A DNA stretch of 64,000 nt. Source: Hydrogenophilales bacterium (GTDB taxonomy: Bacteria; Pseudomonadota; Gammaproteobacteria; Burkholderiales; Eutrophovitaceae). The stretch spans positions 11,089 through 75,088 of the forward strand of contig CACOJS010000007.1 of the NCBI GenBank assembly GCA_902627495.1, read 5' to 3'. This document shows positions 1 through 53,878 of the stretch, one piece after another. A model generated the notes under the pieces. That model worked only from the letters and a program-made list of their open reading frames with translations, was not told where the DNA came from and made no database searches. Each line of letters opens with the position of its first letter. Position 1 is the first letter of the stretch. Made by a program: the position numbers and the translations under genes.

Positions 1-672
1 AATAGTGATAAAATTATTCACCTTGCATTGGGCACTACCATTACTTCTATAATTTTCACCTCCATTTCAAGCGTCAAGGCACATCATTCCCGTGGAGTAG
101 TAAGGTGGGATATTTTTCGGAAGGGCACACCCAGTTTAATCTTAGGAACTTTGTTGGGCACTTTTGTTGCGGATATTTTGAATTCCATATCTCTAGCAAT
201 TTTTTTTGTGGCTTTTGTGTATCTAACCTCGATACAACTTTTTTTTGATTCAAAAAAAACCATCAGAAGAAACCTCCCTGGAATTACTGGTATATGTATT
301 ACTGGATTTTTCATAGGTGCAATTTCCAGCCTTGTGGGGGCAGGAGGAGGGGTATTGTCAATCCCTCTGATGGTGCTATGTGGCATCCCAATCATCCAAG
401 CAGTCGGCACATCAGCAGCTCTCGGATTCCCCATCGCACTAGCCGGGAGTGCTGGCTATCTTTACCACGGACTTGGGGAGCCTTTACTACCACCTTTGTC
501 GGTAGGTTATATCTATATTCCTGCTCTAATTGGCATAACAATTGGAACATTCTTTACCGTTCCAATTGGTGCTAGTATGGCTCACCGTATGCCAGCTAAT
601 TATTTAAAAAAAATATTTGCAATTTTGCTTTTTTTTCTAGCTACCAGAATGGCTTGGGAGTTTTTATCGTAA
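1..672 (+). CDS. TSUP (TauE/SafE) family membrane transporter, 5' truncated by window
   Basis: Frame is open from base 1 (NSDKIIHLALGTT...). Hydrophobic protein with GAISSLVGAGGG and AVGTSAALGFPIALAG motifs typical of the TauE/SafE family. Confidence 0.85.
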   Translation, partial: NSDKIIHLALGTTITSIIFTSISSVKAHHSRGVVRWDIFRKGTPSLILGTLLGTFVADILNSISLAIFFVAFVYLTSIQLFFDSKKTIRRNLPGITGICITGFFIGAISSLVGAGGGVLSIPLMVLCGIPIIQAVGTSAALGFPIALAGSAGYLYHGLGEPLLPPLSVGYIYIPALIGITIGTFFTVPIGASMAHRMPANYLKKIFAILLFFLATRMAWEFLS

Positions 673-691
673 ACAAACCTTTATTAAGCCT

Positions 692-2227
692 CTAATTCTT
701 TGTTTGCTTATTTTCTTTAAAAGCAACTATCTCTGGAATACTATTTAATTTTTCCCTTATAAGGTTTTTTTGTACCTTGCCCATCGCATTTTTTGGTAGT
801 TTTTCTACCTCATAAATTAATTTTGGAACTTTATAATTTGCCAAGTTCTTTGCAAGATTTTCCAAAATTTGTTGCTCATTTGGCTTTTCGCCTTGTTTCC
901 CAACAATAATTGCAATAGCTACCTCTCCAAAATCATGATGGGGTACGCCAACTACAGCAACTTCTTCTATTTGGGGAAATTTTTCCAATAACTGCTCTAT
1001 CTCTTTCGGGTAAACATTGTATCCCCCTGAAATTATCATATCTTTTGATCTACCAACGATCGAGAGATAACCCTTCGGGTTTATAAAACCAAGGTCTCCA
1101 GTTTTGAACCATCCATCTTTGGAAAAATCTGTTTGTAATTTTTCAGGCATACGCCAATAGCCGGAAAAAAGGCTAGGACCCGTAATTTGAATACTACCTA
1201 TTTCGCCAAGCTCCAATGGTTTGTCGAGATCGCCTACTATACGTAGTTTATAAGATTTTAAGGGGAAACCGACTGTTCCCTCCAGACGATCACCATCTAA
1301 AGGGTTTGATGTAATAATGCCGGCCTCTGACATTCCATATCTCTCAAGAATTCTATGACCGGTAAGCTTTAAAAAAGCCCCAGCGGTTTCAACTGTTAGT
1401 GGTGCCGACCCTGAAATAAATAATCTGATATTTCTACATTGATCTACGTTTAAAGTTTTTTCTCTTAGCATTCGCTGGTAGTAAGTTGGTACTCCCATAA
1501 AAACGGTGGCCTCAGACAATTTTTTTACAACATGTTTAGCTTCAAATTTGTCATGCCATAAGATTTTAGCTCCCGCGATTAATGATGTGTGAAGAGCGAC
1601 AAAAAGACCATGAATGTGAAAAATCGGCAGAGCATGTAAAAGTGTATCCTTGTCTGAAAACTGCCATAGCTCTACAAGTAACGACGCATTTTCCGCCAAA
1701 TTACCGTGAGTCAACATGGCCCCCTTGGAGCGGCCGGTAGTTCCAGATGTATAGATCAGTGCAGCAACGTCGTTTTTTTTTCTGGTTACTATGTTGCAGT
1801 CGGGTAATACGTTTGTTTTATTGTTTTCAATATCCTCGAGCACTACTAGGGATAAATCACCTATTTCCTTAACTAGTTTTTCCAACATGTCATGCGAATT
1901 TACATCACAAACAACAATTTTAGGCTCTGAGTTTGACATAAAATAGAGGACCTCACTACCGCTATAAGCTGTATTCAAAGGGGCATAGACAATCCCCGCT
2001 TTAAGACAAGCTAGATATAGAGCTACTGCCTCTGGGCTCTTACCAACTTGAACAAGAAGTCTATCACCGGGAATTAAACCATAAGATACCAATTGTGTAG
2101 CATATGACGACACCTTATGAGACAAATCCTCATAAGTTAATACCTTCTTGGCCGACTCAATTGCCACTTGTTTAGGATACCGCAACATATTATTATGAAT
2201 TAGTTGGTAAAAGTTATGATTTTTCAT
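692..2227 (-). CDS. matB: Malonyl-CoA synthetase (malonate/methylmalonate-CoA ligase)
   Basis: ANL-family P-loop YTSGTTGRSKG plus MatB-type HALPIFHIHGLFVA, ERYGMSE and PKNAMGKVQK. Confidence 0.85.
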   Translation of the reverse strand: MKNHNFYQLIHNNMLRYPKQVAIESAKKVLTYEDLSHKVSSYATQLVSYGLIPGDRLLVQVGKSPEAVALYLACLKAGIVYAPLNTAYSGSEVLYFMSNSEPKIVVCDVNSHDMLEKLVKEIGDLSLVVLEDIENNKTNVLPDCNIVTRKKNDVAALIYTSGTTGRSKGAMLTHGNLAENASLLVELWQFSDKDTLLHALPIFHIHGLFVALHTSLIAGAKILWHDKFEAKHVVKKLSEATVFMGVPTYYQRMLREKTLNVDQCRNIRLFISGSAPLTVETAGAFLKLTGHRILERYGMSEAGIITSNPLDGDRLEGTVGFPLKSYKLRIVGDLDKPLELGEIGSIQITGPSLFSGYWRMPEKLQTDFSKDGWFKTGDLGFINPKGYLSIVGRSKDMIISGGYNVYPKEIEQLLEKFPQIEEVAVVGVPHHDFGEVAIAIIVGKQGEKPNEQQILENLAKNLANYKVPKLIYEVEKLPKNAMGKVQKNLIREKLNSIPEIVAFKENKQTKN

Positions 2228-3390
2228 GAGTTTAATATTTCATCTACTACTCTACTTTTTAGCAGATCAGTCGAACCGCCCCCCTCAAAAACTTTTTTAT
2301 CTGCTCCTAAAATTTCACCAACAACTGTTTTCGGTAAAAGAGTAATTTTTGAATTTTTCTTTGCTTTCACTACACTTGCCACCGAGCATAACGCCACATA
2401 TATACCACCACCAGCAAGCCCATCAATAATAACTTCTACGGATATATCCCTCGATTTGGCATCCGCTATACACAGGCCAACATGAGATAAAAAATCAGAC
2501 AAAACTAGTTTTTCTTCGGATAGTGTCATGATATGACTTGGTGAATTTAACGTAATTGATAAATTACCTCCATCAGGGAACCTAAGCAAATTATCAGCTA
2601 GAGAATAAGCCTCCCGTACCCCTACTGGATTCCCATCTCCCACCTTTGACTTAGACTTTGGTTCTATCAGTCTTTTTTGTGTTTGTCCCAAGAGCCTATT
2701 GCCTAGAGCAACATGAGACTTTGACAAATCTAATTTCGCGTTATCATTGTTTAGTAAAAAATGGTTTATTTTAGCTTTATAGGCTGAGCACCTGTCATCA
2801 CAAATATCGTGGAACGCACCAGCTTCAAGCCTAGCTACTCCTCCCAAATAATGGGTCGCTACGTTTGGTTTTAATTTGGGATTTATTTTACTATTACCTA
2901 TACCCCTAATAATCTTCGGTCCAGACATTCCATAAGATGCATGACGACTGGCTAAACGATACCCGCAGCTTGCAGCAATCATACTCGCCCCACCAAAACA
3001 ATTTTTGAGAACAATCGCCATCATCGGTTGTCCTTCTAATCTCGCTTTTAATATTTCGGCGAACATTAACCGGAACGCCCCTAGTGCTTTATATCCCTCT
3101 GTTAATCTAGCCCCACCAGAATCTAGTAGCAAAATGATTGGAGTACTGTTATCTCGGCTGCATTTCAGAACTGCCGACAACCTTGTGCTCTCAGCAAAGC
3201 CAAAAGTTCCACCATGAACTTTTCTATCAGTTAAAACGACTTCTGCAGTTTTACCTGCAACCTGACACCTTCCAATATACAAAGCCCCATGTGTTTCAAA
3301 ATACTTTATCTGGCTTCCAAATAACTTCTTAGCTTGTTCAAAACTAGTTAGATCCGAAAACCGGCTAGCGTCTTCTACAGCATGCACCAT
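2224..3390 (-). CDS. Carboxyltransferase-fold decarboxylase, apparent fusion of malonate decarboxylase beta (MdcD-like) and gamma (MdcE-like) subunits
   Basis: N-half has GGTFG, LLLDSGGARLTEG, CFGGASM and GMSGPKII (MdcD-like). C-half has PVGVREAYSLA, SHIMTLSEEKL and GLAGGGIYVAL (MdcE-like). ATGA overlap with matB. Confidence 0.7.
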   Translation of the reverse strand: MVHAVEDASRFSDLTSFEQAKKLFGSQIKYFETHGALYIGRCQVAGKTAEVVLTDRKVHGGTFGFAESTRLSAVLKCSRDNSTPIILLLDSGGARLTEGYKALGAFRLMFAEILKARLEGQPMMAIVLKNCFGGASMIAASCGYRLASRHASYGMSGPKIIRGIGNSKINPKLKPNVATHYLGGVARLEAGAFHDICDDRCSAYKAKINHFLLNNDNAKLDLSKSHVALGNRLLGQTQKRLIEPKSKSKVGDGNPVGVREAYSLADNLLRFPDGGNLSITLNSPSHIMTLSEEKLVLSDFLSHVGLCIADAKSRDISVEVIIDGLAGGGIYVALCSVASVVKAKKNSKITLLPKTVVGEILGADKKVFEGGGSTDLLKSRVVDEILNS

Positions 3391-4505
3391 TGACAGACTA
3401 TATCTTCATACGCAGCGGCGGCAGTTTCAATTGCACCGAGCTCGCAATACTCATCTGTCTGATGAGCCAATTCGGGTTTACCTGGACCCATTATAATAGT
3501 TGGAGGATAACTATAGGCCTCGTTTAATGCTGCTGCATCTGTAAAATATGTCGCCGTTTTTGGATCTGGCTTCTCACCGATGAGTGGAGACATAATTCTA
3601 TAAATTTCCTGTACCCAAGGGTCACTAGGTTCAGTAAATACCGGACCTACATCTAAAATTGTTTCCAATGTAACATCACTGTCAAGCGCATTCTGCAACG
3701 CCTCTTTGATTTTGTCATGAGGCGAGCTCGGAACAGTGCGAATATCTATTCCTATAGCTGTCTCATCTGGCACGGAATTAATGTTTAATCCTCCATTAAT
3801 CGTCCCAACATTCAATGATGCTTGACCCATTAAATGATGGGGGTCATTTTCAAATTTAAATTTTTCTAGTGCCACTAATACTCTGGCAGCTTTATACGCG
3901 GCATTTACTCCTTTTTCTGGCATTGATCCATGGGCCGTTACCCCATGAGTTTTAGCACTTATCCAATAAGCCCCCTTGTGGCCCAACATAGGGTAATTAG
4001 AAGTCGGCTCTCCTACCAAAACCGCACCCACTCGGCCAAGCAAACCTGGAGTGGCCACCAAACCAAAGGCACCTTGACATCCAGTCTCTTCCCCTGCCGT
4101 AAAAACCAACTCTAAACCGGGAGACCTATCGAGTTTTTTACCAAGCCCTGCTATTGCCGCAACAAAGGCGGCTATTCCCGACTTCATATCACTTGTTCCT
4201 CGCCCAAATAATTTTCCCTGATCAGTTTCTCCATCAAAGGGCGGTTTCTCCCATTTTGCAATTCCAAGGGGTACTGTATCTAAGTGACCTGTGAAACAAA
4301 GGGGTAACTTATTTTCCGCCCCACCAATCCTAGCTACAAGATTAGCTCGATTGGAGGCTAACTCATGATACTCCACCACAAATCCCTCTTTTTCCAATAG
4401 TGCTCCCAAGGTTTGTGCACAAGCAGTTTCATTACCCGGTGGATTAATAGTGTTCATCCTGACAATTTGTTTAGTAAGTTCGACTGCTAGATTACTTTTT
4501 CCCAT
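3375..4505 (-). CDS. M20A family metallo-amidohydrolase (ArgE/DapE-like)
   Basis: GHLDTVP, GRGTSDMKSG, GEETG, GEPT and AHQTDEY metal-ligand motifs. Confidence 0.9.
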   Translation of the reverse strand: MGKSNLAVELTKQIVRMNTINPPGNETACAQTLGALLEKEGFVVEYHELASNRANLVARIGGAENKLPLCFTGHLDTVPLGIAKWEKPPFDGETDQGKLFGRGTSDMKSGIAAFVAAIAGLGKKLDRSPGLELVFTAGEETGCQGAFGLVATPGLLGRVGAVLVGEPTSNYPMLGHKGAYWISAKTHGVTAHGSMPEKGVNAAYKAARVLVALEKFKFENDPHHLMGQASLNVGTINGGLNINSVPDETAIGIDIRTVPSSPHDKIKEALQNALDSDVTLETILDVGPVFTEPSDPWVQEIYRIMSPLIGEKPDPKTATYFTDAAALNEAYSYPPTIIMGPGKPELAHQTDEYCELGAIETAAAAYEDIVCQWCML

Positions 4506-4526
4506 ACGCTTTTCCCCAGATTTAAT

Positions 4527-5246
4527 CTATTCTCCCTGTCCAAAATAGGCTGCCTGCATTTGACTATTACTTTTCAACATACTAGACGTGCCGTGTGCTA
4601 CAACCTGTCCTTGAGCGAGAACATACCCATAATCAGATATCTCCAAAGTTTGCTTGACGTTTTGCTCAACTAAAAGGACTGTAATACCTCTCTCTTTAAT
4701 TTTTTGAATTACTTTAAAATTTTCTTTGACAAAAAGAGGAGACAGACCGAGAGACGGCTCATCTATAATCAATAGTTTTGGGGCTCCCATCAAACCCCTG
4801 CCGATAGATAGCATTGCCTGCTCCCCCCCCGACATCGTCCCCGCTAACTGCTGACCTCTGTTTGCTAGTTGAGGAAAAATACTCAAAACGCCTTCCATGC
4901 GATCTTGTGCCTTAGCTTTGCTCTTTTCGAGAATTGCTCCTATCAACAGATTTTCTCTCACTGTTAATTTAGGAAAGACTTTTCTCCCTTCAGGTATTGT
5001 TGAAACGCCCTGCCTTACTATATTATGGGTTTCTATGTTAGTTATTTCTTTTGTTTGATAAAAAACCTGTCCCTTTCTAGCTGGCGTTAAGCCTAACAAG
5101 ACACGAATTAAGGTTGATTTACCAGCCCCATTTGCACCTAGTAGACAAGTTATTTTACCTGGCTGAACTTTAAGAGATACCCCTGTTAACACATCCGCCT
5201 CATCATATCCAGCATAAATATTCTGAGTTTCTAGCATACTTTCCAT
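4527..5246 (-). CDS. livF: LIV/HAAT-family ABC transporter ATP-binding protein
   Basis: Walker A GANGAGKST, MSGGEQAML, DEPSLGLSP, LLVEQN. Confidence 0.9.
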   Translation of the reverse strand: MESMLETQNIYAGYDEADVLTGVSLKVQPGKITCLLGANGAGKSTLIRVLLGLTPARKGQVFYQTKEITNIETHNIVRQGVSTIPEGRKVFPKLTVRENLLIGAILEKSKAKAQDRMEGVLSIFPQLANRGQQLAGTMSGGEQAMLSIGRGLMGAPKLLIIDEPSLGLSPLFVKENFKVIQKIKERGITVLLVEQNVKQTLEISDYGYVLAQGQVVAHGTSSMLKSNSQMQAAYFGQGE

Positions 5247-5248
5247 GC

Positions 5249-6025
5249 TTAATCTTCTCCTAAATAAGCTGCCCTAACATCTTTATTCGTCGATACATCC
5301 CTGTAATCACCCTCTGCTATTTTTTTTCCGTAGCTCAAAACTATACATCTATCCGTGACTCTCTCAATAACGTTCATTTCATGCTCTATTAAAATTACTC
5401 CCAATTTTGGTGTTTTAATTTTTATTTCCATAAGGTCGGTCATAAAATCACGCGTCTCTTCATGAGTCATACCGGCAGAAGGCTCATCAAGTAATAAAAC
5501 GCTCGGCTTACTTATTAAAGCCCTACACACCTCTATGCGTCTTCTATCTATCATGGAAAGCTTTCCAATGGGTTGATAAATGTTATCGATTAATTTCGGG
5601 TTGAAAAATGCTAGAATTTCTTCTGCCTGCTCCAGTCGATTTTTTATATCTGCTCTTAAATTGCTGCGACGAAATACATTAAAATAGATCGAGGTATTAA
5701 GGTGCATCGCGTCACCAATAACCAAGTTGTCAAAAACTGACAAGCCAATGGCTAACCTCAGACGCTGAAAAGTTCTTGTAATTCCATTTCTGTAAATATT
5801 TTGGGGACTTGAATGTGTTATTTCTTTGTTTCTAAGCAATACTGATCCACTATTTTTCTTATAAAGACCGGTTATAGCATTGAAACAAGTGGTTTTCCCA
5901 GAGCCATTTGGCCCTATAAGACCAAGTAAGTCCCCTTCGCCAAGTTTGAAATCCAGGTTAGACAGAGCCGTTAGACCCCCAAATCTAACCGTCAGCCCCT
6001 CTACTTGTAATAAACTAGTTTTCAA
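5249..6025 (-). CDS. livG: LIV/HAAT-family ABC transporter ATP-binding protein
   Basis: RFGGLTAL, GPNGSGKTT, RTFQ, LLLDEPSAG, IEHEM and C-terminal VRAAYLG. Confidence 0.9.
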   Translation of the reverse strand: MKTSLLQVEGLTVRFGGLTALSNLDFKLGEGDLLGLIGPNGSGKTTCFNAITGLYKKNSGSVLLRNKEITHSSPQNIYRNGITRTFQRLRLAIGLSVFDNLVIGDAMHLNTSIYFNVFRRSNLRADIKNRLEQAEEILAFFNPKLIDNIYQPIGKLSMIDRRRIEVCRALISKPSVLLLDEPSAGMTHEETRDFMTDLMEIKIKTPKLGVILIEHEMNVIERVTDRCIVLSYGKKIAEGDYRDVSTNKDVRAAYLGED

Positions 6026-7178
6026 GCTTTCTCTCGCGCCCCCAAGTTCGGTAGAAGCTCCTTAAGCCTCTTTTTAACAAGCCCTCTGGCCTGTAGACCA
6101 GGACTAATATCACAAGAATCGAAAAAAGCAGAAACCTGTATTCCTGAATAAACTGCAGTTTTTCGGGTAATACTATTATCAAAAAAGATGCAGGAATTAC
6201 TCCAAGTGGATTACCAATACCACCCAAGATCACTATCGAAATTAAAATTAGAGAATCGGCAAAGGTAAAATTGGTCGGGGCTATATGGCCCAGCATCTGG
6301 GCATATAAACCACCAGCAAGCCCAATGAAAAAATTACCTAACGTGAAAGCAAGAATCTTCCAAGCAGCTATGTTGATCCCAAAGCAAGAGGCCACGGTCT
6401 CATCCAATCGTACAGCATCTAGATGCAAACCTAACCAAGATTTCTCTATAAGTCGAGTTATAATGAATACAACTAGCATGAGCAATAGTGCTGCTATAAC
6501 ATAACTCAGGTAGAAAGAACTACCTAGTAACGGCTCGTTGAAATCCAACCCAAAAAATTTAAAACTGGCTATCTTAAGCCCCTGGGGCCCACCCAAGGTA
6601 TCATTTATCTCTAAAAACGTTTTAAATAACAGAGCAAATGCAATCGTAACCAAGGCCGCATAATGTCCACGAGTTCTCAACACTGGCAATATAAGCAGAG
6701 AGCCTATTATTGCCGCCATTAAACCACCGAGTAAAATTACCAGGACATTCGGTATCGATTGGTTGGTTAAAACAGCAACTGTATATCCTCCAACTCCCAA
6801 AAATGCAGCTCCGGCAAAATTAGTCAATCCGGTATATCCCAGTTGCAGGGTGAGCCCTAAACAAGCTGTGGCGTAAATTGCAACTGATGCGATCATAAAC
6901 AATGCGAAATGCTCATGCCGGCAAAAGACTATTGCAATAATCACCGGCGACACAATAGTTAAATAAAAAACACAAGGATGTTCTCGATAAACCTGATCAA
7001 TTTTGTGTGGGATTCCTCGACCCTTTGCAATGAAAAATCCAAGTATCCCTAGCCCTATAATAGCCCCCAATAGCATCTCTTTTTCTACTATTAAAAAAGC
7101 TACAACTAAAATTGTTGTTATTGTGCTAGTTAAAAGTATTTCACAATACGTTACTAGGTATTTATCTTGCTTTTTCAT
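6015..7178 (-). CDS. livM: LIV/HAAT-family ABC transporter permease
   Basis: LGYTGLTNFAGAAFLGVGGY, LRTRGHYAALVTIAF, VILGGIG, RPEGLL. Confidence 0.9.
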   Translation of the reverse strand: MKKQDKYLVTYCEILLTSTITTILVVAFLIVEKEMLLGAIIGLGILGFFIAKGRGIPHKIDQVYREHPCVFYLTIVSPVIIAIVFCRHEHFALFMIASVAIYATACLGLTLQLGYTGLTNFAGAAFLGVGGYTVAVLTNQSIPNVLVILLGGLMAAIIGSLLILPVLRTRGHYAALVTIAFALLFKTFLEINDTLGGPQGLKIASFKFFGLDFNEPLLGSSFYLSYVIAALLLMLVVFIITRLIEKSWLGLHLDAVRLDETVASCFGINIAAWKILAFTLGNFFIGLAGGLYAQMLGHIAPTNFTFADSLILISIVILGGIGNPLGVIPASFLIIVLPEKLQFIQEYRFLLFSILVILVLVYRPEGLLKRGLRSFYRTWGRERKLEN

Positions 7179-8092
7179 ACTCGGTCCGAGTTAATCTCAG
7201 ATAATAGGCCTGTTGGTCGCCAGGCCATAATCATGATAATTACCACAAACGCGAATACATCTTTATAAGCAGGCACCGAAAACCAAATAGCACCGATGGT
7301 TTGTAAAAACGCAAATAAAAAACCTCCTATTATTGCACCAAGAAGGCTTCCTAGCCCTCCTACTACAGCTGCACTAAAGCCAATCACGCCTAAAAACAAT
7401 CCTCGGTCGAAAATTATTTCATGATAATAAAGTCCGTTCGCAACACCTGCCAACGCAGCCAACCCAGATCCTAAGGCGAACGTGCCCAAAACAATTCGCT
7501 TAAAATTTATTCCCATAAGGCGGGCTGTTTCCGGATCTTGTGCTACTGCCCTAATAGATAAGCCTAGTCTGGTTTTTCTTATTGCTAGATTTAAAATTAA
7601 TATTGCCAACAATCCACCAACAATTATTATTGCCGTATCTTGCCGTATTTCCATGGTCCCTATAATCCAAGAATTTTCAGGAAGGAGCCTCGGAAAAGGT
7701 TTTGGGTTGGATCCATTGGGATAAAACAATCTCACAGCCTCCCTTATAGCCAAACCCAGCATTAAAGTTATCAACAAAGTATTTAGAGGAGGTGCCCCTC
7801 TAAGAGGCAAGACTAAGTGTTGAGCAATTAAAGTTCCTAGAGTTGCCATTATTGAGATGGCGAAGAGCAGTGATATACATAAGTTGAGCCAAGTCGGAAA
7901 TTCTCCTAGCTGACTTAAAAAAAGAGATGCTATTAAAGCGGCAAAACTACCTGCCATTAAAACATCACCGTGGGAAAATTTTATTACGTTTAAAACACCA
8001 AAAAACAACGTGAACCCCACTGCTACCATTGCATAAATTACACCTAACACCAGACCATTAATTATGTGTTGATCCAATAAACTAAAGTCCAT
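7175..8092 (-). CDS. livH: LIV/HAAT-family ABC transporter permease
   Basis: NGLVLGVIYAMVAVGFTLFFGVLNVIKFSHGD, RAVAQDPETARLMGIN, AAVVGGLGS. Confidence 0.9.
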   Translation of the reverse strand: MDFSLLDQHIINGLVLGVIYAMVAVGFTLFFGVLNVIKFSHGDVLMAGSFAALIASLFLSQLGEFPTWLNLCISLLFAISIMATLGTLIAQHLVLPLRGAPPLNTLLITLMLGLAIREAVRLFYPNGSNPKPFPRLLPENSWIIGTMEIRQDTAIIIVGGLLAILILNLAIRKTRLGLSIRAVAQDPETARLMGINFKRIVLGTFALGSGLAALAGVANGLYYHEIIFDRGLFLGVIGFSAAVVGGLGSLLGAIIGGFLFAFLQTIGAIWFSVPAYKDVFAFVVIIMIMAWRPTGLLSEINSDRV

Positions 8093-8127
8093 TAATGGTT
8101 CCCTTGGTTAAATAGTAATCTTAATCT

Positions 8128-9279
8128 TCAACGTGAGAGTTGGCGTTGGCCAGATTGGTAATCACTTGCTTCCCAAATTACCCACTTACCATCTTGAACC
8201 ACAAACTTAGTTATCAACGGAACCATATTCTGTCCATTATCATCGAAACTTATCTTACCAATTACGGAATTATGGTCCTTAATCTGATTTAAAAATTTTG
8301 TAATTTTTTTTCTATCAGGTCCAACTGCCTCTACTGCTCGAATAATTAGGTTTGCAGCAGCAAAGGCAAAGGGACCATAAGCCTCGGGCGGAGATGAATA
8401 TTCCATTTCTTTATATTTAGTCAGAAACATTTTACCTCCTGGCAATCTCTCCGCCGAATCGCCCTCTCTAAACGCTAAAGTGCCTTCCGACAGGTTTCCG
8501 GTCCCCTCAATGTAAGCATCTGAAATAATTCCCGAAGTCCCCTGAAAAAGGGCCGGTATATTTAACCGATCCATTTGTGTTCTCACTCGAACTCCTATTG
8601 GTGTTATCCCTCCAAAATAAAGAACTTCGGGTTTGAGTGCCTTGATTTTTGTAAGTTCAGCATTAAAATCTTGTTGGTCAGCTGTTACCCCAAACCGCCC
8701 CAACACCTTCCCACCATACTTTTCTATACTTTCCGTAAAATACTTGTCGTGTCCTTTTCCATAATCAGTAGTATCATGAATGATGGCCCAGTTTCTATAT
8801 CCCTGATCAATCATAAAGCGTGCAGCGACATCATTTTGATTAATCATTGTTCCGTTTACCCGATGGATTTCGGGATAGTCATTTCCGTACGTAATTTCTG
8901 GTAAGACAGCCCCCCAGACTATCATTGGCAAGGCAAACTTATGGAACACATCAACGGTACCAACAGCTACTGCGGAGCAATAATGAGCTACAGCTCCAAA
9001 TATCTTGGAGTCTGCCGCTGCCTTTGTGGCAACTTGGATACCTATGTTAGGTTTACACTCATCGTCAAGAACAACTAGTTCATATTGATATTTTTTCGAT
9101 GTGTCGGCGTTGGCCAGTTTTATTGCTAGATCGGCTGAGTTTCTGCCCCCTATCCCGTTTGCAGATACCCCACCTGTTAACGGACCTATAAATGCTATTT
9201 TAACAAGATCTGTTTCATTTGAAGAACATCCAAATAAAAACACCCCCAGCGACAGCATAATCAATAGAATACGATTCAT
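8128..9279 (-). CDS. LivK/LivJ-like substrate-binding protein, predicted lipoprotein
   Basis: VKIAFIGPLTG, DDECKP and GAVAHYCS periplasmic-binding type 1 motifs. Likely start is ATG at 9279 (MNRILL...LFGC lipobox); the ORF track starts at 9297. Confidence 0.85.
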   Translation of the reverse strand: MNRILLIMLSLGVFLFGCSSNETDLVKIAFIGPLTGGVSANGIGGRNSADLAIKLANADTSKKYQYELVVLDDECKPNIGIQVATKAAADSKIFGAVAHYCSAVAVGTVDVFHKFALPMIVWGAVLPEITYGNDYPEIHRVNGTMINQNDVAARFMIDQGYRNWAIIHDTTDYGKGHDKYFTESIEKYGGKVLGRFGVTADQQDFNAELTKIKALKPEVLYFGGITPIGVRVRTQMDRLNIPALFQGTSGIISDAYIEGTGNLSEGTLAFREGDSAERLPGGKMFLTKYKEMEYSSPPEAYGPFAFAAANLIIRAVEAVGPDRKKITKFLNQIKDHNSVIGKISFDDNGQNMVPLITKFVVQDGKWVIWEASDYQSGQRQLSR

Positions 9280-9322
9280 GAGTGCCCCCATTCCCATCCG
9301 ATGTTAGAACTTAATTCATTTT

Positions 9323-9351
9323 AGCGTAGAGCTACTCGGCCTGAATGTCAA
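9323..9351 (-). promoter_or_regulatory. Putative sigma70 promoter of the ABC/M20/mdcDE/matB operon
   Basis: Minus strand reads TTGACA-17 bp-TACGCT upstream of the binding-protein gene. Confidence 0.55.
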
Positions 9352-9411
9352 TGATAGACTGTGGGTCTTTGTTTTTTCTCAAGATTATCGCGAAGAGTAT
9401 CTAGCAAAGCT

Positions 9412-9430
9412 TAGTGGCCAATAACCACTA
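9412..9430 (-). terminator. Possible weak terminator after atpC
   Basis: TAGTGG/CCACTA inverted repeat just downstream of the atpC stop; the U-tail is poor. Confidence 0.35.
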
Positions 9431-9443
9431 CCGATATTAATTT

Positions 9444-9860
9444 CTATTTACCTTCGCGCCTTATCATTGCCAACTGGGCCTTCAACATTGCAAGTTCCGC
9501 TTCAACTGAGGCTATTTCCTGCTTGCTTGCAGCCTTTTCTAGCGCCTCTTCTGCTTTTTTTCTCGCCTCTACTGCTCTTTCCTCATCCAAGTCCTCAGCC
9601 CTGATGGCAGTATCCGCCAGAACCGTGACTATCGAGGGCTGAACCTCCAATATACCCCCAGCCACAAAAATGTGATCTTCCTTTTCTACATCTGGAACTT
9701 TTATACGGACAGGACCCGCTTTAATACTAGTAATAAGAGGGGCATGCTTTGGGTAAATTCCTAAGTCACCCGATTCCCCAGGCAATACAACAAATTCTGC
9801 TTTACCCGAAAAAATTTCTTCCTCTGCACTAACCACATCTATCTGTATTGTATCGTTCAT
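9444..9860 (-). CDS. atpC: F1 ATP synthase epsilon subunit
   Basis: [32 protein letters not shown]; last gene of the atp operon. Confidence 0.97.
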
Positions 9861-9921
9861 GTTTTTTTTAGTCTAATAACGCACCTAATAGTATGAGAAC
9901 ACTCAAGGTCAACCCAAGAGA

Positions 9922-11349
<1,428 letters not shown>

Positions 11350-11376
11350 TTAATTTTTAATTTTTTAATATCGACC

Positions 11377-12240
11377 CTATACTGCAGCCGCGCCTCCGAC
11401 TATCTCAGATAATTCTTGTGTTATGGCCGCTTGCCTAGACTTATTGTAGACTAGAGTTAGTTCATCAATAAGGGAAGCTGCATTGTCAGAGGCCGACTTC
11501 ATTGCTACCATTCTTGCAGACTGCTCAGATGCCATGTTTTCCGCTACTGATTGAAAAATTAGAGTCTCTATATACCTCTTAAGTGCCATATTTAATATCG
11601 CTTCCGCATCAGGCTCATAAATGTAATCCCATGACCCCTCTGGGGCACCCAAATGATCACCGGATAAAGGTAATAGCTGTTCTTGAAGTGGCTCCTGCTT
11701 CATAGTATTCAAAAATCTCGTATAGAACAAATCAACCCTATCAAACTTGTCTTCGTTGTAACCATCCAACATTATTTTAACGGCCCCGATCAAGTCATCA
11801 AGTTTTGGTGAATCTCCCAGTGGAGTTACGTGGGAGACAACATTTGCTCCAAGCCTTTGCATAGCAGCTAGTCCCTTGCCACCGATGCAACAAACATCGA
11901 CCTCTTCACCATCATCTTTAAGTTTCTTAAAGTGTGCGAGTGCAGCTCTAAGTAGGTTTGAATTCATGGCCCCACAAAGGCCTTTGTCAGTTGTGACTAT
12001 AATCATTCCCGCTCTCTTAACGGTGTCGCGCTCCACTAGGAATGGATGCCTATACTCTGGATTTGCGTGAGATATATGGGCGGCTAATGTTCGCATTTTT
12101 TCCGCATAGGGTCTGGCAGCCCGCATCCTTTCCTGTGCTTTACGCATTTTGGAAGCCGCGACCATTTCCATAGCCTTAGTTATCTTCCGAGTGTTTTGCA
12201 CACTCTTTATCTTTGTTCTTATTTCCTTTGTACCCGCCAT
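11377..12240 (-). CDS. atpG: F1 ATP synthase gamma subunit
   Basis: [35 protein letters not shown]. Confidence 0.99.
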
Positions 12241-12259
12241 ATTTTAAATACCCAGATAT

Positions 12260-13807
12260 TTAATAAGTACCGTTTTTCTTCCAATCTTGAATTGCCTTTG
12301 ACAACGTCTGTTCATCATCAGCTGATAAATTCTTCGACTTATCTAGACGCTGTATCAATTCTTGATGATGACTGCTGAGATAGTCTTTCATCGACTTTTC
12401 GGCCGGCAAAGCTTTTTCCACTTCAATATCGTCAAAAAAGTCATTATTAACAGCAAACAGAGTTAAAGCCATTTCCCAAACCTCCATTGGTGCATACTGC
12501 ACTTGCTTCATTAACTCGGTCACTAGTCGTCCCCTTTCTAATTGCTTTCTAGTAGCCTCATCAAGATCCGACGCAAATTGAGCAAATGCCGCCAACTCTC
12601 TGTATTGGGCTAATGCTAGACGAACTCCACCTCCAGTATCTTTTCTTTTCATAACCTTAGTTTGAGCAGCCCCACCAACTCTTGAAACCGAGACCCCAGC
12701 ATTAATAGCAGGTCGGATACCAGAATTGAAGAGGTCTGTTTCTAGAAAGATTTGTCCGTCTGTAATTGATATGACATTCGTAGGCACGAAAGCCGACACG
12801 TCACCAGCCTGGGTTTCAATTATCGGTAAAGCAGTCAAAGATCCTGTTTTTCCCTTAACTTTGCCATCGGTATGTTTTTCAACCCAAGCCTCAGACACTC
12901 TAGCCGCCCTCTCGAGCAACCTGGAGTGTAAGTAAAAAACATCGCCGGGATAAGCCTCTCTTCCTGGAGGGCGCCTAAGTAATAACGAAATTTGGCGATA
13001 AGCCCAGGCCTGCTTAGTTAAATCATCATAGATGATTAGAGCGTCTTGCCCGTTATCCCTAAAATACTCTCCCATAGTGCACCCAGAATATGCCGCTATA
13101 TACTGCATGGCTGCTGACTCAGACGCAGTAGCTGCAACTACTATGGTATACTCCATCGCCCCATGTTCCTCTAACTTCCGCACTACATTAGCAACCGTTG
13201 ATGCCTTTTGTCCTATCGCCACATAAACACAGAACAAATCTTTTCCCTTTTGATTTATGATAGTATCCACCGCAACCGCTGTTTTACCTGTCTGTCTATC
13301 ACCAATTATTAATTCTCTTTGTCCCCTCCCAATAGGAACCATCGAGTCAATAGCCTTAAGCCCCGTTTGAACAGGCTCAGATACTGATTTTCTCCATATC
13401 ACCCCTGGAGCAACTTTCTCAATCGGATCAGAAGTTAAACTCTCAACAGGCCCTTTACCATCAATAGGATTACCCAACGCATCAACCACTCGACCAACCA
13501 GGGCTGGGCCAGTCGGCACCTCTAAAATTCTACCTGTGCTTTTAACAACATCACCTTCAGTTACATGAACATAGTCTCCCAGAACAACCGCCCCTACTGA
13601 GTCCCTTTCTAAATTTAAAGCTAGCCCAATAGTGCCATTGGGGAACTCCAGCATCTCACCCTGCATCACATCCGATAACCCGTGAACACGACATATCCCA
13701 TCTGTTACAGAAACTACAGTCCCCTGGGTTTTCGCATCGGTATCTTCCGCAAAGTTTTCTATTTTTTTCTTAATAAGCTCACTAATTTCCGATGGATTCA
13801 ACTGCAT
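12260..13807 (-). CDS. atpA: F1 ATP synthase alpha subunit
   Basis: [31 protein letters not shown]. Confidence 0.99.
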
Positions 13808-38117: not shown

Positions 38118-40130
38118 ATGGAAAATAGAAAAGAACTAGCAAATGCAATACGTGCCCTTTCGATGGATGCAGTGGAAAAAGCCCAATCAGGGCACCCCGG
38201 CATGCCCATGGGTATGGCTGAAATTGCAGAATCTTTATGGCGAATGCACCTTCGCCATAACCCCAAAGACCCCAACTGGATAAATCGGGATAGGTTCGTA
38301 ATTTCCAACGGCCATGGGTCTATGTTGCTATATGCAGTTCTTCATCTCACGGGCTATCCATTATCCATAGAAGATTTGAAAAGATTTAGGCAATTGGGCT
38401 CTTCCACCCCCGGGCACCCAGAATTTGGACTCACCACTGGAGTCGAGACCACAACAGGTCCTCTTGGCCAAGGGTTGGCTAATGCAGTAGGTATGGCCAT
38501 AGCTGAAAAGATCCTATCACAACAGTTTAATGAGCCAGGGTTTGATATTTTTAATCATCATACATATGTATTTTTGGGGGATGGATGTTTAATGGAAGGG
38601 GTTTCCCATGAAGCATCATCATTAGCCGGGGTGCTAGGTTTAGGAAAACTAATAGCACTTTATGATGATAACAGCATATCTATTGACTCTGACAAAGGAA
38701 ATATAAAAAACTGGTTTAATGATGATACCCCCGGGAGATTTCAGTCGTATGATTGGCATGTTATTCGGGATGTGGATGGCCATAGCAATGAAGCAGTAGA
38801 CAGGGCCATACTTGACGCAAAGGCAAATCCCAATCAACCTACCATAATATGTTGCAAAACAGTCATAGGAAAAGGTTCTCCGAATAAACAGGGAACGGGG
38901 GGAGTTCACGGTGCCCCACTAGGTCGAGAGGAAATTGATCTTACAAGAAAAAATATCAATTGGAAATATGCACCATTTGAGATTCCAAAAGAGATTTATG
39001 ATTCGTGGAATTGTGCAGACAAAGGAAAAGAATTACAAAACCAATGGATTACAAAGTTTGACGAATATGCTAAGAAATTCCCGGATAAAGCGGCAGAAAT
39101 TAATCGAAGAATAGACAAAAAATTGCCAGATGGTTGGTTGACCTTTAGAAATGAGCTGTTGCAGGGTATCGAGCGAGATCGTCAGGACATTGCCACGAGA
39201 AAAGCATCGCAGCAAATTATAGAGCGTTTTAAGTCTTTTATACCAGAGTTGCTCGGAGGTTCTGCTGATTTGGCAGCCTCTAATTTAACGATGCATTCCT
39301 CAGCTAACCCCTTGACAAAAAGTAAAGGGACCGGCGATTATCTTTTTTATGGTGTTAGAGAGTTTGGCATGGCTGCCATCATGAATGGTATAGAGTTGTA
39401 CGGCGGTTTGATTCCTTTTGGGGGAACTTTTTTGGTATTTTCTGATTATGCCAGAAACTCCCTTAGAATGTCAGCCCTCATGAAATTACGAACAATTTAT
39501 GTATTTACCCACGACTCGGTAGGATTGGGTGAAGACGGCCCCACACATCAGCCTATCGAGCAGGCATCCTCATTGAGGTTGATGCCAAACATGAAGGTTT
39601 GGAGGCCTTGTGATGCATTTGAGACTGCCGTTGCTTGGATTGCTGCCCTTGAAAACCAGGGTGGCCCGACTAGTATATTATTGTCCCGACAAACCTTGCC
39701 ATACCAGGAACGGTCAGGCGTGGATTATGATGATGTTTTTCGAGGGGGGTACACTCTGGTTGATGTGAAATCCCCGGCCGGTATAATTTTAGCTACTGGT
39801 TCAGAGGTTGGTATAGCAGTCAATGCTGCACAAGTATTGAAAGCCAGTGGATATGCGGTGAGAGTCGTTTCTATGCCATGTACAAATGTATTTGATGATC
39901 AGAGTCCAGAATACAAAGAAAAGGTTTTACCAGATGGAATTCCAAGAGTGGCAATTGAGGCAGGTGTAACGGATTTTTGGCGAAAATATGTCGGTTTGAG
40001 AGGACACGTATTAGGAGTAGATATATATGGTGAGTCAGCACCTGGAAAAGAGGTTTTTGAACATTTTGGACTGACGGTGGACAATTTGGTTAAAAAGGCA
40101 AAGACTATTCTAGATAAAAAATATAGTTAA
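38118..40130 (+). CDS. tkt: Transketolase
   Basis: [40 protein letters not shown]. Confidence 0.99.
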
Positions 40131-40141
40131 GGGAAATATCA

Positions 40142-41155
40142 ATGACAATAAGGGTTGCAATAAATGGTTTCGGAAGAATTGGTCGGAATGTTTTAAGAGC
40201 CAGCTTTGAAGGTTCGATGTCGTCAGAGCTGGAAATAGTAGCTATTAATGATTTGGGGGATGCTGCAACAAATGCACATTTAATCAAATATGACACTGCA
40301 CACGGAATTTTCCCAGGAACCATTGAGGTGGGTGATGGTTATTTGACAGTAAATGGTAAAAAAGTCAAAGTCCTGGCCCACAGAGACCCGGCAGATTTGC
40401 CTTGGGAAAGCATGTCAATTGACGTTGTTCTAGAGTGTACCGGGCTGTTTACAGCTCGAAAACGGGCTGCTGCCCATTTGCAGGCTGGTGCCAAAAAAGT
40501 CCTGATATCTGCTCCCGGCGACAAGGATGTTGATGCTACAGTTGTCTTTGGAGTGAACCACAAAACCTTGACTGCATCTCACCAAGTTGTTTCAAATGCG
40601 TCTTGCACTACTAACTGTCTGGCTCCTATCGCTAAAGTGCTACATGAGCAAATAGGTATCGAAAGTGGCCTAATGACAACCATCCACTCTTATACCAATG
40701 ATCAGGTATTGAGCGATGTGTATCACCAAGATCTAAGGCGAGCTAGATCCGCAACAATGTCAATGATACCAACTAAAACAGGGGCAGCGGCAGCAGTAGG
40801 GCTTGTTCTGCCAGAATTGAGCGGAAGATTAGATGGTTTTGCCATTAGGGTTCCGACAATTAATGTGTCAATGGTTGATTTGTCCTTTGTGGCCTCACGT
40901 AGTACGAGTGCGGAGCAGATTGAAGACATAGTTGCAGAAGCAGTTGCTGGTAATCTTAAAAATATTCTGGCAATAAATAGGGCTCCATTGGTTTCGGTGG
41001 ACTTTAATCATAATCCAGCATCCTCAATTTTTGATACTACACTCACTAAGGTATCGGATGGGACCTTAGTCAAGGTGTGTGCTTGGTATGATAATGAGTG
41101 GGGTTTTTCAAACCGCATGCTTGATGTTGCGATGTACCTGGCGTCAATAAAATAA
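40142..41155 (+). CDS. gap: Glyceraldehyde-3-phosphate dehydrogenase
   Basis: [30 protein letters not shown]. Confidence 0.98.
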
Positions 41156-41165
41156 CCAACTGTAA

Positions 41166-42338
41166 ATGCCTGTTCCAAGCATATCTGATTTTTCACTGAC
41201 TAACAGAAGGGTTTTTCTGCGAGCAGATTTTAACGTTCCGATGGACGAAAAGGGAGTGGTCCTTGATTCTAGTCGGGTAGAGGCATCTCTACCTGCTATA
41301 AAATATGCTTTAGAGGACGGGGCGGCTTTAATGGTGACTTCACATCTGGGGCGACCAAAAGAGGGAAAGTGGGAAGCCAAGTTTTCTCTGGAAGGGGTTA
41401 GATTAGAGCTCAGTAAACTTCTTAATCGTCATATTCCCCTTATTAAAAACTGGGTAGACGGGGTAACAGTTAATCGTGGCGAAATAGTCTTACTTGAAAA
41501 CTGTCGATTTAACCAAGGAGAAAAAAGTTGTGATATTAATTTATCAAAAAAAATGTCGGGTTTATGTGACATATTTGTTAATGATGCCTTTGCAACAGCA
41601 CACAGGATGGAAGCAACGACCTACGGTTTGGCTAAATACGCCAATATAGCGTGTGCAGGACCTTTAATGACATCTGAGTTGCGAGCACTCTCTAAGGCAT
41701 TGAGCTCACCAGCCCGTCCTTTGGTTGCCGTCGTGGGAGGATCAAAAATATCCACAAAATTACCAGTTCTTTCCGGATTGGCGGAAAAAGTTGACCACCT
41801 TATAGTTGGCGGTGGAATTGCTAACACTTTTTTACTCTCGCAAGGGTATAATATCGGAGGTTCTTTGGTAGAGAAAGATCTACAGTTTGAAGCCACCCGG
41901 ATCATAGAAAAGATAAAAAACAAGGGAGGATCTTGTCCGTTACCAGACGATATTGTAAGTGGACCAGGCATAGAAGCTGGAGGCGATTGCCAAATAAAAT
42001 CTCTTAAAGATCTTTCCAGTAATGAGATGATACTGGATGTTGGGCCAAATACTATTAATAAATTCTGTGAAATAATAGGTAGTGCTGGCACAGTGGTATG
42101 GAATGGACCTCTGGGGGTATTCGAGATTGACGACTTTTCGCACGGAACAAAGGCCATGGGAAAAGCAATAGAGAAGTCAAATGCGTTTTCGATTGCAGGT
42201 GGTGGAGATACAATTGCTGCCATTAATAAATTCTCTATAATAAATATCGATTACATATCCACGGCTGGTGGTGCGTTCCTAGAGTTTTTAGAGGGCAAGA
42301 CACTTCCGGCGGTAGCAGCATTGGAGAGAAGATTGTAA
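41166..42338 (+). CDS. pgk: Phosphoglycerate kinase
   Basis: RADFNVP, SHLGRP, NDAFATAHR, WNGPLGVFE, GGGDT, STAGGAFLEFLEG. Confidence 0.99.
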   Translation: MPVPSISDFSLTNRRVFLRADFNVPMDEKGVVLDSSRVEASLPAIKYALEDGAALMVTSHLGRPKEGKWEAKFSLEGVRLELSKLLNRHIPLIKNWVDGVTVNRGEIVLLENCRFNQGEKSCDINLSKKMSGLCDIFVNDAFATAHRMEATTYGLAKYANIACAGPLMTSELRALSKALSSPARPLVAVVGGSKISTKLPVLSGLAEKVDHLIVGGGIANTFLLSQGYNIGGSLVEKDLQFEATRIIEKIKNKGGSCPLPDDIVSGPGIEAGGDCQIKSLKDLSSNEMILDVGPNTINKFCEIIGSAGTVVWNGPLGVFEIDDFSHGTKAMGKAIEKSNAFSIAGGGDTIAAINKFSIINIDYISTAGGAFLEFLEGKTLPAVAALERRL

Positions 42339-42459
42339 TAACCTAAGATAATTGCGGGTAAGACTGTTAAATTGCTAATATGTGAAAAGTAAAAATTAGT
42401 CCATATTGGGTTGATTTAAATTTAACCATCAAATTTATTATAAACATAAGGAAAAAATA

Positions 42460-43518
42460 ATGGCGTTGGTTTCTATGAGGCAGGTGTTAGATCATGCTGC
42501 CGAAAATAATTATGGTGTGCCCGCATTTAACGTGAATAATCTTGAGCAGATTCAGGCTATTATGCAGGCTGCCAGCGAGACAAATAGTCCAGTAATTATG
42601 CAAGCCTCAGCGGGTGCTCGAAAATATGCGGGAGAGCCTTTCTTAAGGCATTTAATCTTAGCAGCTGTTGAGATGTTTCCTGATATTCCAGTTGTTATGC
42701 ATCAAGATCATGGGGGCAGTCCTGCCGTTTGCCAGCGGTCAATAAGGTCTGGATTCACAAGTGTAATGATGGATGGCTCCTTACATGAAGATATGAAAAC
42801 ACCGGCTTCTTATGAATACAATGTCAATGTTACTCGTCAAGTGGTAGATATGGCTCATGCCGTTGGAGTATCAGTTGAGGGTGAGTTAGGTTGTCTCGGT
42901 TCGTTGGAAACTATGGAGGCTGGTAAAGAGGATGGTTCAGGTGCGGAAGGAGAGTTAACTCGAGAAATGCTATTGACCGACCCGGGGGAAGCTGAAAATT
43001 TCGTGCGGGAAACACAAGTTGATGCATTAGCTATAGCCATAGGAACTTCACATGGTGCCTATAAGTTTTCGCGTAAACCAACCGGTGACATCTTGGCTAT
43101 GAATCGCATCAAAGAGATACACGAGAGAATTCCTCAAACTCATTTAGTCATGCACGGCTCCTCTAGTGTTCCTCAAGAGTGGCTTCAAATTATCCGGGAA
43201 AATGGTGGTGACCTAAAAGAGACCTACGGGGTTCCCGTTGAAGAAATACAAGAAGGCATTAAACATGGGGTTCGGAAAATAAACATCGATACTGATGTGA
43301 GGTTAGCGATGACAGGTGCAGTACGACGTTATTTTGTTCAAAATAAATCAGAATTTGATCCGAGAAAATATCTAAAAGAAGCAATGGTTGCTGCAAAATC
43401 AATATGCATGGCTCGTTTTGAGGCATTTGGAACCGCGGGGAATGCCGCTAAAATTAAACCAATGGCACTGGACATGTTCGCGTTGCAGTACGAGGTACTT
43501 AGGCAGTCAAACAAATAA
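42460..43518 (+). CDS. fba: Class II fructose-bisphosphate aldolase
   Basis: [43 protein letters not shown]. Confidence 0.98.
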
Positions 43519-53199: not shown

Positions 53200-53203
53200 A
53201 GGT

Positions 53204-53878
53204 ATGGTATCAAAATCGTTCCAATTAGATGCTGATAGATCATCAAGGACAGGTTTAGATGAGGCAATCTTTTGTGCTCATAAAACCACAAATGACATAG
53301 TAAAGATCATGCAATCTTTACTAGAAAGAAAAACGCGAGCTTTGTTTACGCGCTTGTCACAGGTAAAATTTGAGCAAATTCCTATAAACGTAAGAACGGA
53401 ATTAAACTATGATCCATTCTCATCGACTGCAATACTCGGGACAATGCTTGAGCCGACTAATGAGCCAAATATTGCAATAGTGTCTGCAGGAACCTCTGAT
53501 CTAAACGTTGTAACAGAAGCAGCTAGAACTTTGATTTACTATGGTAAAGGATATGTAGATATAAATGATGTTGGTGTAGCGGGTTTGTGGAGACTGCTGC
53601 AAAGAATTGATGATATAAAAAAAATGGATGTAGTAATTGCAGTAGCAGGAATGGACGCTGCATTACCTACAGTTTTGGGAGGGCTGATACCTTGTCCGAT
53701 TATTGGCGTTCCAACATCAGTGGGGTATGGTGTGGCTGATAGTGGTAGCACAGCTCTCAACTCAATGCTTGCTAGTTGTTCCTCCGGATTATCAGTTGTA
53801 AATATAGATAATGGGTACGGTGCTGCTTGTGCTGCTTTAAGAATTTTACAGATAGCCAAACCAGGATCTGATAGCTAA
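53204..53878 (+). CDS. larB: NPN cofactor carboxylase/hydrolase LarB
   Basis: RTGLDEAIF, AGTSD, DVGVAG, VAGMDAAL, PTSVGYG, VVNIDNGYGAA. Confidence 0.93.
   Translation: MVSKSFQLDADRSSRTGLDEAIFCAHKTTNDIVKIMQSLLERKTRALFTRLSQVKFEQIPINVRTELNYDPFSSTAILGTMLEPTNEPNIAIVSAGTSDLNVVTEAARTLIYYGKGYVDINDVGVAGLWRLLQRIDDIKKMDVVIAVAGMDAALPTVLGGLIPCPIIGVPTSVGYGVADSGSTALNSMLASCSSGLSVVNIDNGYGAACAALRILQIAKPGSDS

Follow-up and report, generated by a model that had tools for sequence, protein, structure and literature searches.

We analysed a stretch of 64,000 nucleotides from a Hydrogenophilales bacterium (contig CACOJS010000007.1, positions 11,089 to 75,088, called here the window). A row of eight open reading frames (ORFs) on its minus strand, spanning positions 692-9297, encodes an ATP-binding cassette (ABC) importer of the Liv type, a zinc amidohydrolase of the M20 family (referred to below as M20), a carboxyltransferase-fold protein (CT) and a malonyl/methylmalonyl-coenzyme A (CoA) synthetase of the MatB type. 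This cluster is a real, conserved and undescribed variant of malonate handling. Judging from the contexts in which its genes occur, the persisting unit is M20-(CT)-MatB and not the eight genes together, the importer being exchangeable. We establish below the identity of the genes (at family level), their packing and order, the paralogy of M20 and the fusion in CT. To the reading in which deacylation by M20 is coupled to activation by MatB, with an N-malonyl-type substrate, we give a probability of roughly 40%.

According to this coupled reading, the importer and its lipoprotein binding protein would bring in an N-acyl compound. M20 would cleave this amino-acid-like compound, whose acyl part would be malonate or a substituted malonate, and MatB would ligate the released dicarboxylate to CoA. 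CT would decarboxylate the malonyl-type thioester without biotin, yielding acetyl-CoA, or propionyl-CoA from methylmalonyl-CoA. Malonate is an antimetabolite, according to the abstract of PMC13769450, and its release inside the cell would explain the presence of a clearing pair beside the hydrolase. The cluster would form a single transcription unit around the conserved trio, a part of the coupled reading that we put forward with the same reserve. More tentatively still, these genes may belong to an unrecognised pathway for N-malonyl or substituted-malonyl amino compounds in betaproteobacteria of this family, which includes small marine genomes and shows Calvin-cycle-type genes in the window. 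The pathway would be made up of an M20 "demalonylase", MatB and a new family of single-chain, biotin-independent acyl-CoA decarboxylases of the MdcD/E type. The substrate would be external where the lipoprotein-anchored Liv-type importer is present; in its absence, damaged metabolites of the cell itself would supply it.

Conservation and genomic contexts of the cluster

The cluster was compared with its counterparts in 12 relatives of the same family, which have GC contents of 40-65% and genome sizes of 1.4-4.5 Mb. In all 12, the genes for the binding protein, LivHMGF, M20, CT (where present) and MatB were found in the same order, directly 3' of atpAGDC and before a tauE gene in reverse orientation. 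CT lies inside the cluster in nine of these genomes. In the remaining three (G006, G011 and G009), MatB comes directly after M20; a CT-family gene was detected elsewhere in G006 and G011, and none was found in G009, whose assembly is 67% complete. An earlier note on this DNA had proposed to look for co-occurrence of the M20 and ABC genes with matB and an MdcDE-like gene. This association was recovered in 12 of 12 relatives and in two further genomes (G422 and G421), but the MdcDE-like gene is missing from the cluster in three of the 12. M20 and CT overlap or abut in relatives G001-G004 and G007. Identity to the proteins of the window was 63-81% for the binding protein, 61-76% for M20 and 47-56% for MatB over the 12 relatives; for CT it was 30-46% where tblastn detected the gene and 25% for G005 and G010 in an alignment. 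The C-terminal CT match contains one in-frame TGA in G004 (C68:62332-62739) and one in G008 (C34:205988-206398), which may reflect a broken CT, a sequencing error or an alignment running past the end of the gene. Since the slot between atpC and tauE is the same in all relatives, which as kin are not independent, much of the adjacency may have been inherited rather than independently selected.

Outside the family, the best M20 matches in eight genomes from other families of the order had at most 32% identity or were absent. In a class-wide sample, from which genome G268 was not scored, two of the 399 other scored genomes were positive for M20 at E up to 1e-60, with homologues of 44-45% identity, and in neither case do MatB or Liv genes stand next to it. 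When metagenomes were scanned with the M20 alignment, at least 568 relatives came up, and the results that follow concern the best 80 of these. Downstream sequence was informative (at least 400 nt 3' of M20) in 73 of the 80 loci, and CT or MatB was found 3' of M20 in 43 of the 73. Such a neighbour was present in 42 of 43 loci at 57% identity or more, against one of 30 below this value, a split that was chosen after seeing the data. Upstream contexts were read in the 38 loci of at least 57% identity with 700 nt or more upstream. M20 was preceded by Liv-type ABC genes in 22 of them, directly by atpC or atpD without adjacent importer in 11, by a divergent gene for a Dpp-type binding protein in four and by none of these in two. 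The counts sum to 39 because one locus (L098, 1-2426) was counted under both Dpp and Liv: between its divergent Dpp-type gene and M20 it holds part of a LivF-like sequence (about 160 aa, 61% identity), which could be the remnant of a replaced Liv-type importer. The Dpp-type form of the cluster was also found in genome G421, whose MatB stands at the start of another contig, and locus L118 displays the full order atpA...atpC-M20-CT-MatB followed by tauE in reverse. The eight-gene unit that the earlier note had described, with its importer, therefore does not stand as stated, the Liv-type importer being one of at least three upstream contexts. That M20-(CT)-MatB persists while the importer changes speaks for a functional link of the deacylase with the formation of malonyl-CoA. 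The simplest chemistry for such a link would be the one proposed in the earlier note, in which an N-malonyl-type amide is hydrolysed and the malonate then activated and decarboxylated.

The 11 loci in which the trio follows atpC or atpD without importer would also fit an internal repair function. M20-(CT)-MatB would strip malonyl groups added by reactive malonyl-CoA to the cell's own amino compounds and return the malonate to the CoA pool, and the importer would be a later, lineage-specific addition. The location of the cluster in the core region close to the origin, where dnaA, gyrB and the atp operon are also found, and its retention in small genomes of 1.4-2.0 Mb are in keeping with such a function. 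We nevertheless consider this explanation improbable, since a Liv-type importer is found directly 5' in 22 of the 38 informative loci and in all 12 relatives, its binding protein is conserved better than any other product of the cluster and there is no direct evidence for such malonyl adducts in bacteria.

A scan of genome contigs for CT yielded 51 loci, nearly all from betaproteobacterial metagenome-assembled genomes (MAGs). MatB is the next gene 3' on the same strand in 40 of these loci and lies at 1.7 kb in one more; nine loci end at a contig edge, and one has room for MatB without containing it. M20 is also present in only three (L001, L002 and L048), of which L001 agrees in its statistics with one of the 12 relatives and was therefore counted once. 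DUF1178 was found in 31 of the 51.

Several observations weigh against the coupled reading. Most of the 51 CT loci contain CT-MatB without M20 or importer, and 19 of them contain a MatA-type decarboxylase, either directly after MatB on the same strand (13 loci) or upstream on the opposite strand (six loci). The presence of MatA beside CT-MatB would be redundant if CT were a plain malonyl-CoA decarboxylase. The earlier note had taken the MdcDE-like gene for the malonyl-CoA decarboxylase; this is now uncertain, as the gene shares one operon with a canonical MatA-type enzyme in 13 other loci, and CT may act on methylmalonyl-CoA or another carboxy-acyl-CoA. Liv-type ABC genes accompany M20 homologues of 50-56% identity without MatB, for example in L138, L139, L159, L160 and L165, and a CT paralogue in G006 is part of a separate cluster that has its own CoA ligase and Liv-type ABC genes. 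Within the family, every relative carries the cluster in a single chromosomal slot, between atpC and the reverse tauE, and the importer/M20 half is more conserved than the MatB/CT half, the two halves evolving at different rates. Finally, N-malonyl amino acids are known as plant conjugates, and a natural source of them in this apparently marine habitat is not known to us.

Many of these facts would fit an alternative in which the row consists of functionally separate modules in one inherited slot. The importer and M20 would then scavenge an N-blocked amino acid or a small peptide-like compound for its amino acid, CT-MatB would be a housekeeping pair clearing endogenous malonate and methylmalonate, and the acid released by M20 would not be a substrate of MatB. 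CT-MatB standing without M20 or transporter, its frequent association with MatA-type malonyl-CoA decarboxylase (MCD) and DUF1178, the unequal conservation of the two halves and the common position of the whole block between atpC and tauE all fit with this explanation. So do the M20 homologues found with Liv-type ABC genes and no MatB, and the one in L136, whose neighbours are MlrC-like, Dpp ABC and amidase genes. The malonyl-CoA synthetase ACSF3 has moreover been given a "metabolic editing" role in mammals (abstract of PMC13769450). However, CT or MatB comes next after M20 in 42 of the 43 informative metagenome loci at 57% identity or more, among them the 11 without adjacent importer, so that in importer-less loci M20 travels with MatB and not with ABC genes. 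In addition, the M20 stop and the CT start overlap in several genera, and MatB closes up to M20 where CT has been lost (G006, G011 and G009). We hold separate modules to be somewhat less probable than the coupled reading.

Two other arrangements were observed during these scans. An operon-like row CT-MatB-MatA(MCD)-DUF1178 occurs in L005, L007, L009, L011, L012, L015-L017, L024, L028, L029, L042 and L049, in Usitatibacteraceae-type and other betaproteobacterial MAGs; in L024, MCD comes directly after CT, without MatB. Locus L090 (G006:C6:59000-75000, about 2700-13500) contains a CT paralogue of 422 aa between a Peripla_BP_6 protein and LivHMGF-like genes. It is preceded by genes for a regulator with helix-turn-helix and shikimate-kinase-like parts, a flavodoxin and an AMP-ligase of 541 aa, and followed by genes for an alpha/beta hydrolase and a short-chain dehydrogenase/reductase. 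This locus is a second design of the type "CoA ligase + CT + Liv-type ABC".

M20, MatB and the fused carboxyltransferase-fold protein

Domains were assigned with Pfam and NCBIfam models, which supported the identities that the earlier note had given to the genes (importer, M20, MdcDE-like and MatB). The M20 gene (3375-4505, minus strand) encodes a protein of 376 aa with Peptidase_M20 and M20_dimer domains, belonging to the ArgE/DapE family of zinc amidohydrolases. It passed the model for the ArgE/DapE subfamily (TIGR01910, 232.8 bits for a cut-off of 217.6), whereas it fell short of those for proteobacterial DapE (TIGR01246, 124 bits for a cut-off of 361.8) and for ArgE (TIGR01892, 185.6 bits for a cut-off of 297.7). 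Across 17 homologues, no exchange occurs at the metal and catalytic residues H74, D106, E139, E140, E166 and H348. The cluster M20 thus has the fold, the dimerisation domain and the full set of metal and catalytic residues in common with DapE and ArgE, but differs from them by scores below both equivalog cut-offs, by the exchange of residues that bind succinate and by its coexistence with DapE and ArgJ. In AbDapE, succinate is contacted by Arg179 and Tyr198, plus His195 from the partner chain (PMC10809365). Arg179 corresponds in M20 to an invariant histidine (H176) and Tyr198 to a nearly invariant methionine (M195); only the His (H192) is kept.

Alongside the M20 orthologue present in all 12 relatives, a canonical DapE scoring 537-569 bits, above the cut-off, was found in nine of them, including G001, which belongs to the same genus as the bacterium of the window. 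The latter contains ArgJ (401.9 bits for a cut-off of 298), so that ArgE is not required in this genome. No canonical DapE was found in its 81.5%-complete assembly, in which DapD and every gene flanking dapE in G001 and G010 are likewise missing; dapF is present in the window at 60648-61481. Since DapD and the dapE neighbours are absent together, an assembly gap is the likely cause of the absence of DapE, and the dap block of this genome is most likely unassembled. M20 is thus neither the housekeeping DapE nor ArgE, and the possibility, raised in the earlier note, that it is simply one of these enzymes of this genome can be set aside.

One genus departs from this pattern. In genus g5 (G006 and G011, 97-98% complete), DapD was detected at 493-496 bits, and neither a canonical DapE nor a DapL was found above cut-off. 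The best DapE-like gene of g5 is the M20 orthologue of the present cluster, which lacks CT in these genomes (L070 and L075), and this orthologue may serve as DapE there, as a paralogous replacement. It could accordingly be argued that M20 is a second N-succinyl-diaminopimelate desuccinylase of the DapE type, an isozyme or backup whose place beside MatB is incidental. Its best solved match (7uoi, E 8e-44) was indeed deposited as a (probable) DapE, and no canonical DapE was found in the genome of the window. This seems very improbable to us, given the nine relatives carrying both proteins, the probable loss of the whole dap block from the assembly, the score of M20 at about a third of the DapE cut-off and the exchange of the Arg and Tyr succinate contacts for H176 and M195.

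The last gene of the row (692-2227, minus strand; 511 aa, AMP-binding domain) passed the NCBIfam model NF005702, "malonyl-CoA synthase", with 673.4 bits for a cut-off of 558. It matched the solved MatB of R. palustris (4fuq) over its full length (residues 14-496) with 464 bits. As far as sequence comparison can assign it, MatB is solid at the family level. Two other kinds of substrate were considered for the cluster and dropped: oxalyl conjugates, because MatB scored 464 bits to MatB and 231 to oxalyl-CoA synthetase, and those of ureidomalonate or barbiturate catabolism, because the cluster contains no barbiturase or amidase.

The CT gene (2224-3390, minus strand) encodes a single chain of 388 aa with weak matches to Carboxyl_trans and MdcE. 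We compared it with the products of the classic mdc operon of genome G018. Residues 35-235 matched MdcD (hhalign 99.2%, E 1.2e-19) and residues 243-359 matched MdcE (hhalign 95.8%, E 8e-9). CT is therefore a single-chain fusion of an MdcD-like N-terminal half with an MdcE-like C-terminal half: the earlier note was right in recognising both parts under the name "mdcDE", which here form one fused gene. The scores remained far below the equivalog cut-offs (NF005530, 74.2 for 228; TIGR03133, 70 for 278; TIGR03134, 42.1 for 237). An AlphaFold2 (AF2) model of CT was obtained with a pLDDT of 87.5 and a pTM of 0.90. Foldseek confirmed two carboxyltransferase domains, matching this model to two-domain beta subunits of acyl-CoA carboxyltransferases with E 4e-18 and a TM-score of only about 0.45, because the packing of the domains differs from that in the hexameric beta subunits.

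In MdcD, the oxyanion hole is formed by the backbone amides of Val121 and Gly162 (PMC5534430). These two positions align to the CT motifs GGARL and CFGG. The motifs DSGGAR and NCFGG are invariant, as are residues D90, S91, G93, A94 and N130-G134 in 17 sequences. In MdcE, the malonyl group is bound by Gln100, Tyr102 and Ser142. PMC5534430 also reports a weak decarboxylation of malonyl-CoA by MdcD-MdcE in vitro. The search for MdcA in the 81.5%-complete genome gave no result, and the cluster contains no mdcC, mdcB, mdcG or mdcH (for mdcC, the cluster alone was covered). A MatA-type decarboxylase (PF05292) had no match in the cluster or in this genome, nor in 14 control genomes; the family is detectable in other loci, and one of the 12 relatives has such an enzyme. 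CT is consequently the sole candidate decarboxylase in this family of bacteria. The public annotations of the CT family are uninformative: where a relative is named, it is called "hypothetical protein" or "enoyl-CoA hydratase".

The importer and comparison with known systems

The five importer genes constitute a complete Liv/HAAT architecture, and all lie on the minus strand. They encode a substrate-binding protein (8128-9297; 389 aa, Peripla_BP_6, Pfam E 2.9e-42), a LivH/UrtB-like permease (7175-8092; 305 aa, BPD_transp_2, PF02653 E 6e-41), a LivM-like permease (6015-7178; 387 aa, BPD_transp_2, PF02653 E 5.9e-38), a LivG-like ATPase (5249-6025; 258 aa, ABC_tran and BCA_ABC_TP_C) and a LivF-like ATPase (4527-5246; 239 aa, ABC_tran E 4e-31). 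The importer proteins missed all NCBIfam equivalog cut-offs. Among solved structures, LivK and LivJ come closest to the binding protein (E about 1e-25 to 1e-27). Conservation within the cluster is highest for this protein, whose mean column identity reaches 76% over 14 aligned sequences spanning the 40-65% GC range. It carries a lipoprotein-type signal with the lipobox LFGC, as do most of the orthologues whose N-terminus is complete. As the orthologues start at MNR, the true start of the binding protein is probably the ATG at 9279 and not 9297.

Position E226 of LivJ, which we take to be a ligand-contact residue, aligns to a serine in the binding protein. Among the LivJ contacts to the free alpha-amino acid, for which we used the list given in PMC6983066, S79 and Y150 are kept, whereas T102 is replaced by V, Y202 by I or L, and Y18 by N, G or S. 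The cluster importer thus has the five-component architecture and the Pfam families of LivJ/K-HMGF (HAAT), but differs from it in the equivalog cut-offs missed, in the residues at the T102 and Y202 contacts and in the lipobox on its binding protein. Transport of urea or amides was considered and dropped, as the binding protein gave no UrtA-type match.

Malonate use is known in two forms, the matABC system and the mdc holoenzyme. The rhizobial matABC genes encode the decarboxylase MatA, the synthetase MatB and the carrier MatC. The activation of malonate by MatB and an adjacent decarboxylase gene are common to matABC and to the present cluster, which has neither MatA (PF05292) nor a MatC-type carrier; it contains instead, or in addition, the carboxyltransferase-fold CT, the five-gene Liv-type ABC importer and M20. 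The two halves of CT are homologous to MdcD and MdcE of the mdcABCDEGH systems of Pseudomonas, Acinetobacter and Klebsiella, and the oxyanion-hole motifs are kept (PMC5534430). In contrast to these systems, CT consists of a single fused chain (388 aa) scoring far below the cut-offs, and its thioester would come from MatB and not from an acyl-carrier protein. A third comparison can be made with the ACSF3-type clearing of malonate in mammals, as presented in the abstract of PMC13769450: in both cases a MatB-type synthetase together with a decarboxylase could clear malonate, but the present cluster is bacterial, its decarboxylase would be of a different fold, and a deacylase and an importer are linked to it.

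In the open-access literature of PMC and bioRxiv, we found no description of a cluster of M20, MatB and an MdcDE-like protein, in agreement with the earlier note, which had called it a candidate undescribed operon. The same literature yielded no bacterial hydrolase of N-malonyl amino acids and no link between DUF1178 and malonate. If the coupled reading is true, the cluster would represent a third arrangement for malonate, in which a fused MdcD/E-like protein and MatB act on the CoA thioester, and it would contain the first deacylase genetically tied to malonyl-CoA formation. It would also point to malonyl-conjugated compounds as nutrients or damage products of bacteria. Since CT is common beside MatB in betaproteobacteria, knowing which reaction it catalyses would improve annotations in many cases; the practical value stays limited as long as no substrate has been found.

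Layout of the locus and other features of the window

The ORF coordinates confirmed the eight tightly packed genes on one strand that the earlier note had reported, with intergenic distances of at most 35 bp or overlaps. From the binding-protein gene to matB, the successive junctions are a gap of 35 bp, overlaps of 4 and 11 nt, gaps of 2 and 21 bp, and overlaps of 16 and 4 nt. Both 4-nt overlaps, at livH/livM and CT/matB, read ATGA, as the ATG start overlaps the TGA stop; the overlap of 16 nt is that of M20 and CT.

The promoter TTGACA-17-TACGCT named in the earlier note is present as a sequence on the minus strand (9323-9351, read from 9351 to 9323), 26 nt 5' of the annotated start of the binding protein. 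Its -10 hexamer agrees with TATAAT at only three of six positions, for which reason a consensus promoter scan did not return this site, and promoter-like sites in positions 1-10000 are not above chance (18 observed for 23.9 +/- 4.6 in shuffles). The two hexamers are nevertheless identical in G001, where they also stand 17 nt apart 5' of the binding-protein gene and the sequence of the spacer has diverged. In G002, TTGACA-17-TAGTCT is found 5' of the orthologous gene. No riboswitch or structured leader emerged: Rfam yielded nothing in positions 1-10000 up to an E-value of 0.1, and the folding of the leader was not significant (z -0.19). Terminator-like sites did not exceed chance (11 observed for 7.9 +/- 2.4 in shuffles), and in the same scan none was found between atpC and the cluster or 3' of matB.

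The atp operon lies upstream on this strand, atpC occupying 9444-9860, and a convergent tauE-like gene lies downstream. The window corresponds to the origin region, as it contains dnaA, dnaN, gyrB, gidAB and parAB. The data sets listed for this stretch include none of RNA; those of DNA are marine or freshwater metagenomes in which it is present at a small share only.

Three other groups of genes were observed in the window. Within 51206-53878, an ORF of 261 aa without Pfam match at 1e-8 stands between the genes for a LarC-like nickel-insertion protein (PF01969) and an AIR-carboxylase-like protein of the LarB type; an ORF of 440 aa at 49867-51189 likewise lacks a Pfam match. The row at 51206-53878 looks like a set of maturation genes for the lactate-racemase cofactor. 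At 54567-56952, divergent genes encode a protein with an FGE-sulfatase domain (EgtB-like) and a histidine-specific methyltransferase (EgtD-like), a pair that suggests ergothioneine synthesis. Finally, the genes for transketolase, glyceraldehyde-3-phosphate dehydrogenase, phosphoglycerate kinase and class II fructose-bisphosphate aldolase form a row at 38118-43518 that is typical of Calvin-cycle (cbb) sets and hints at an autotrophic lifestyle.

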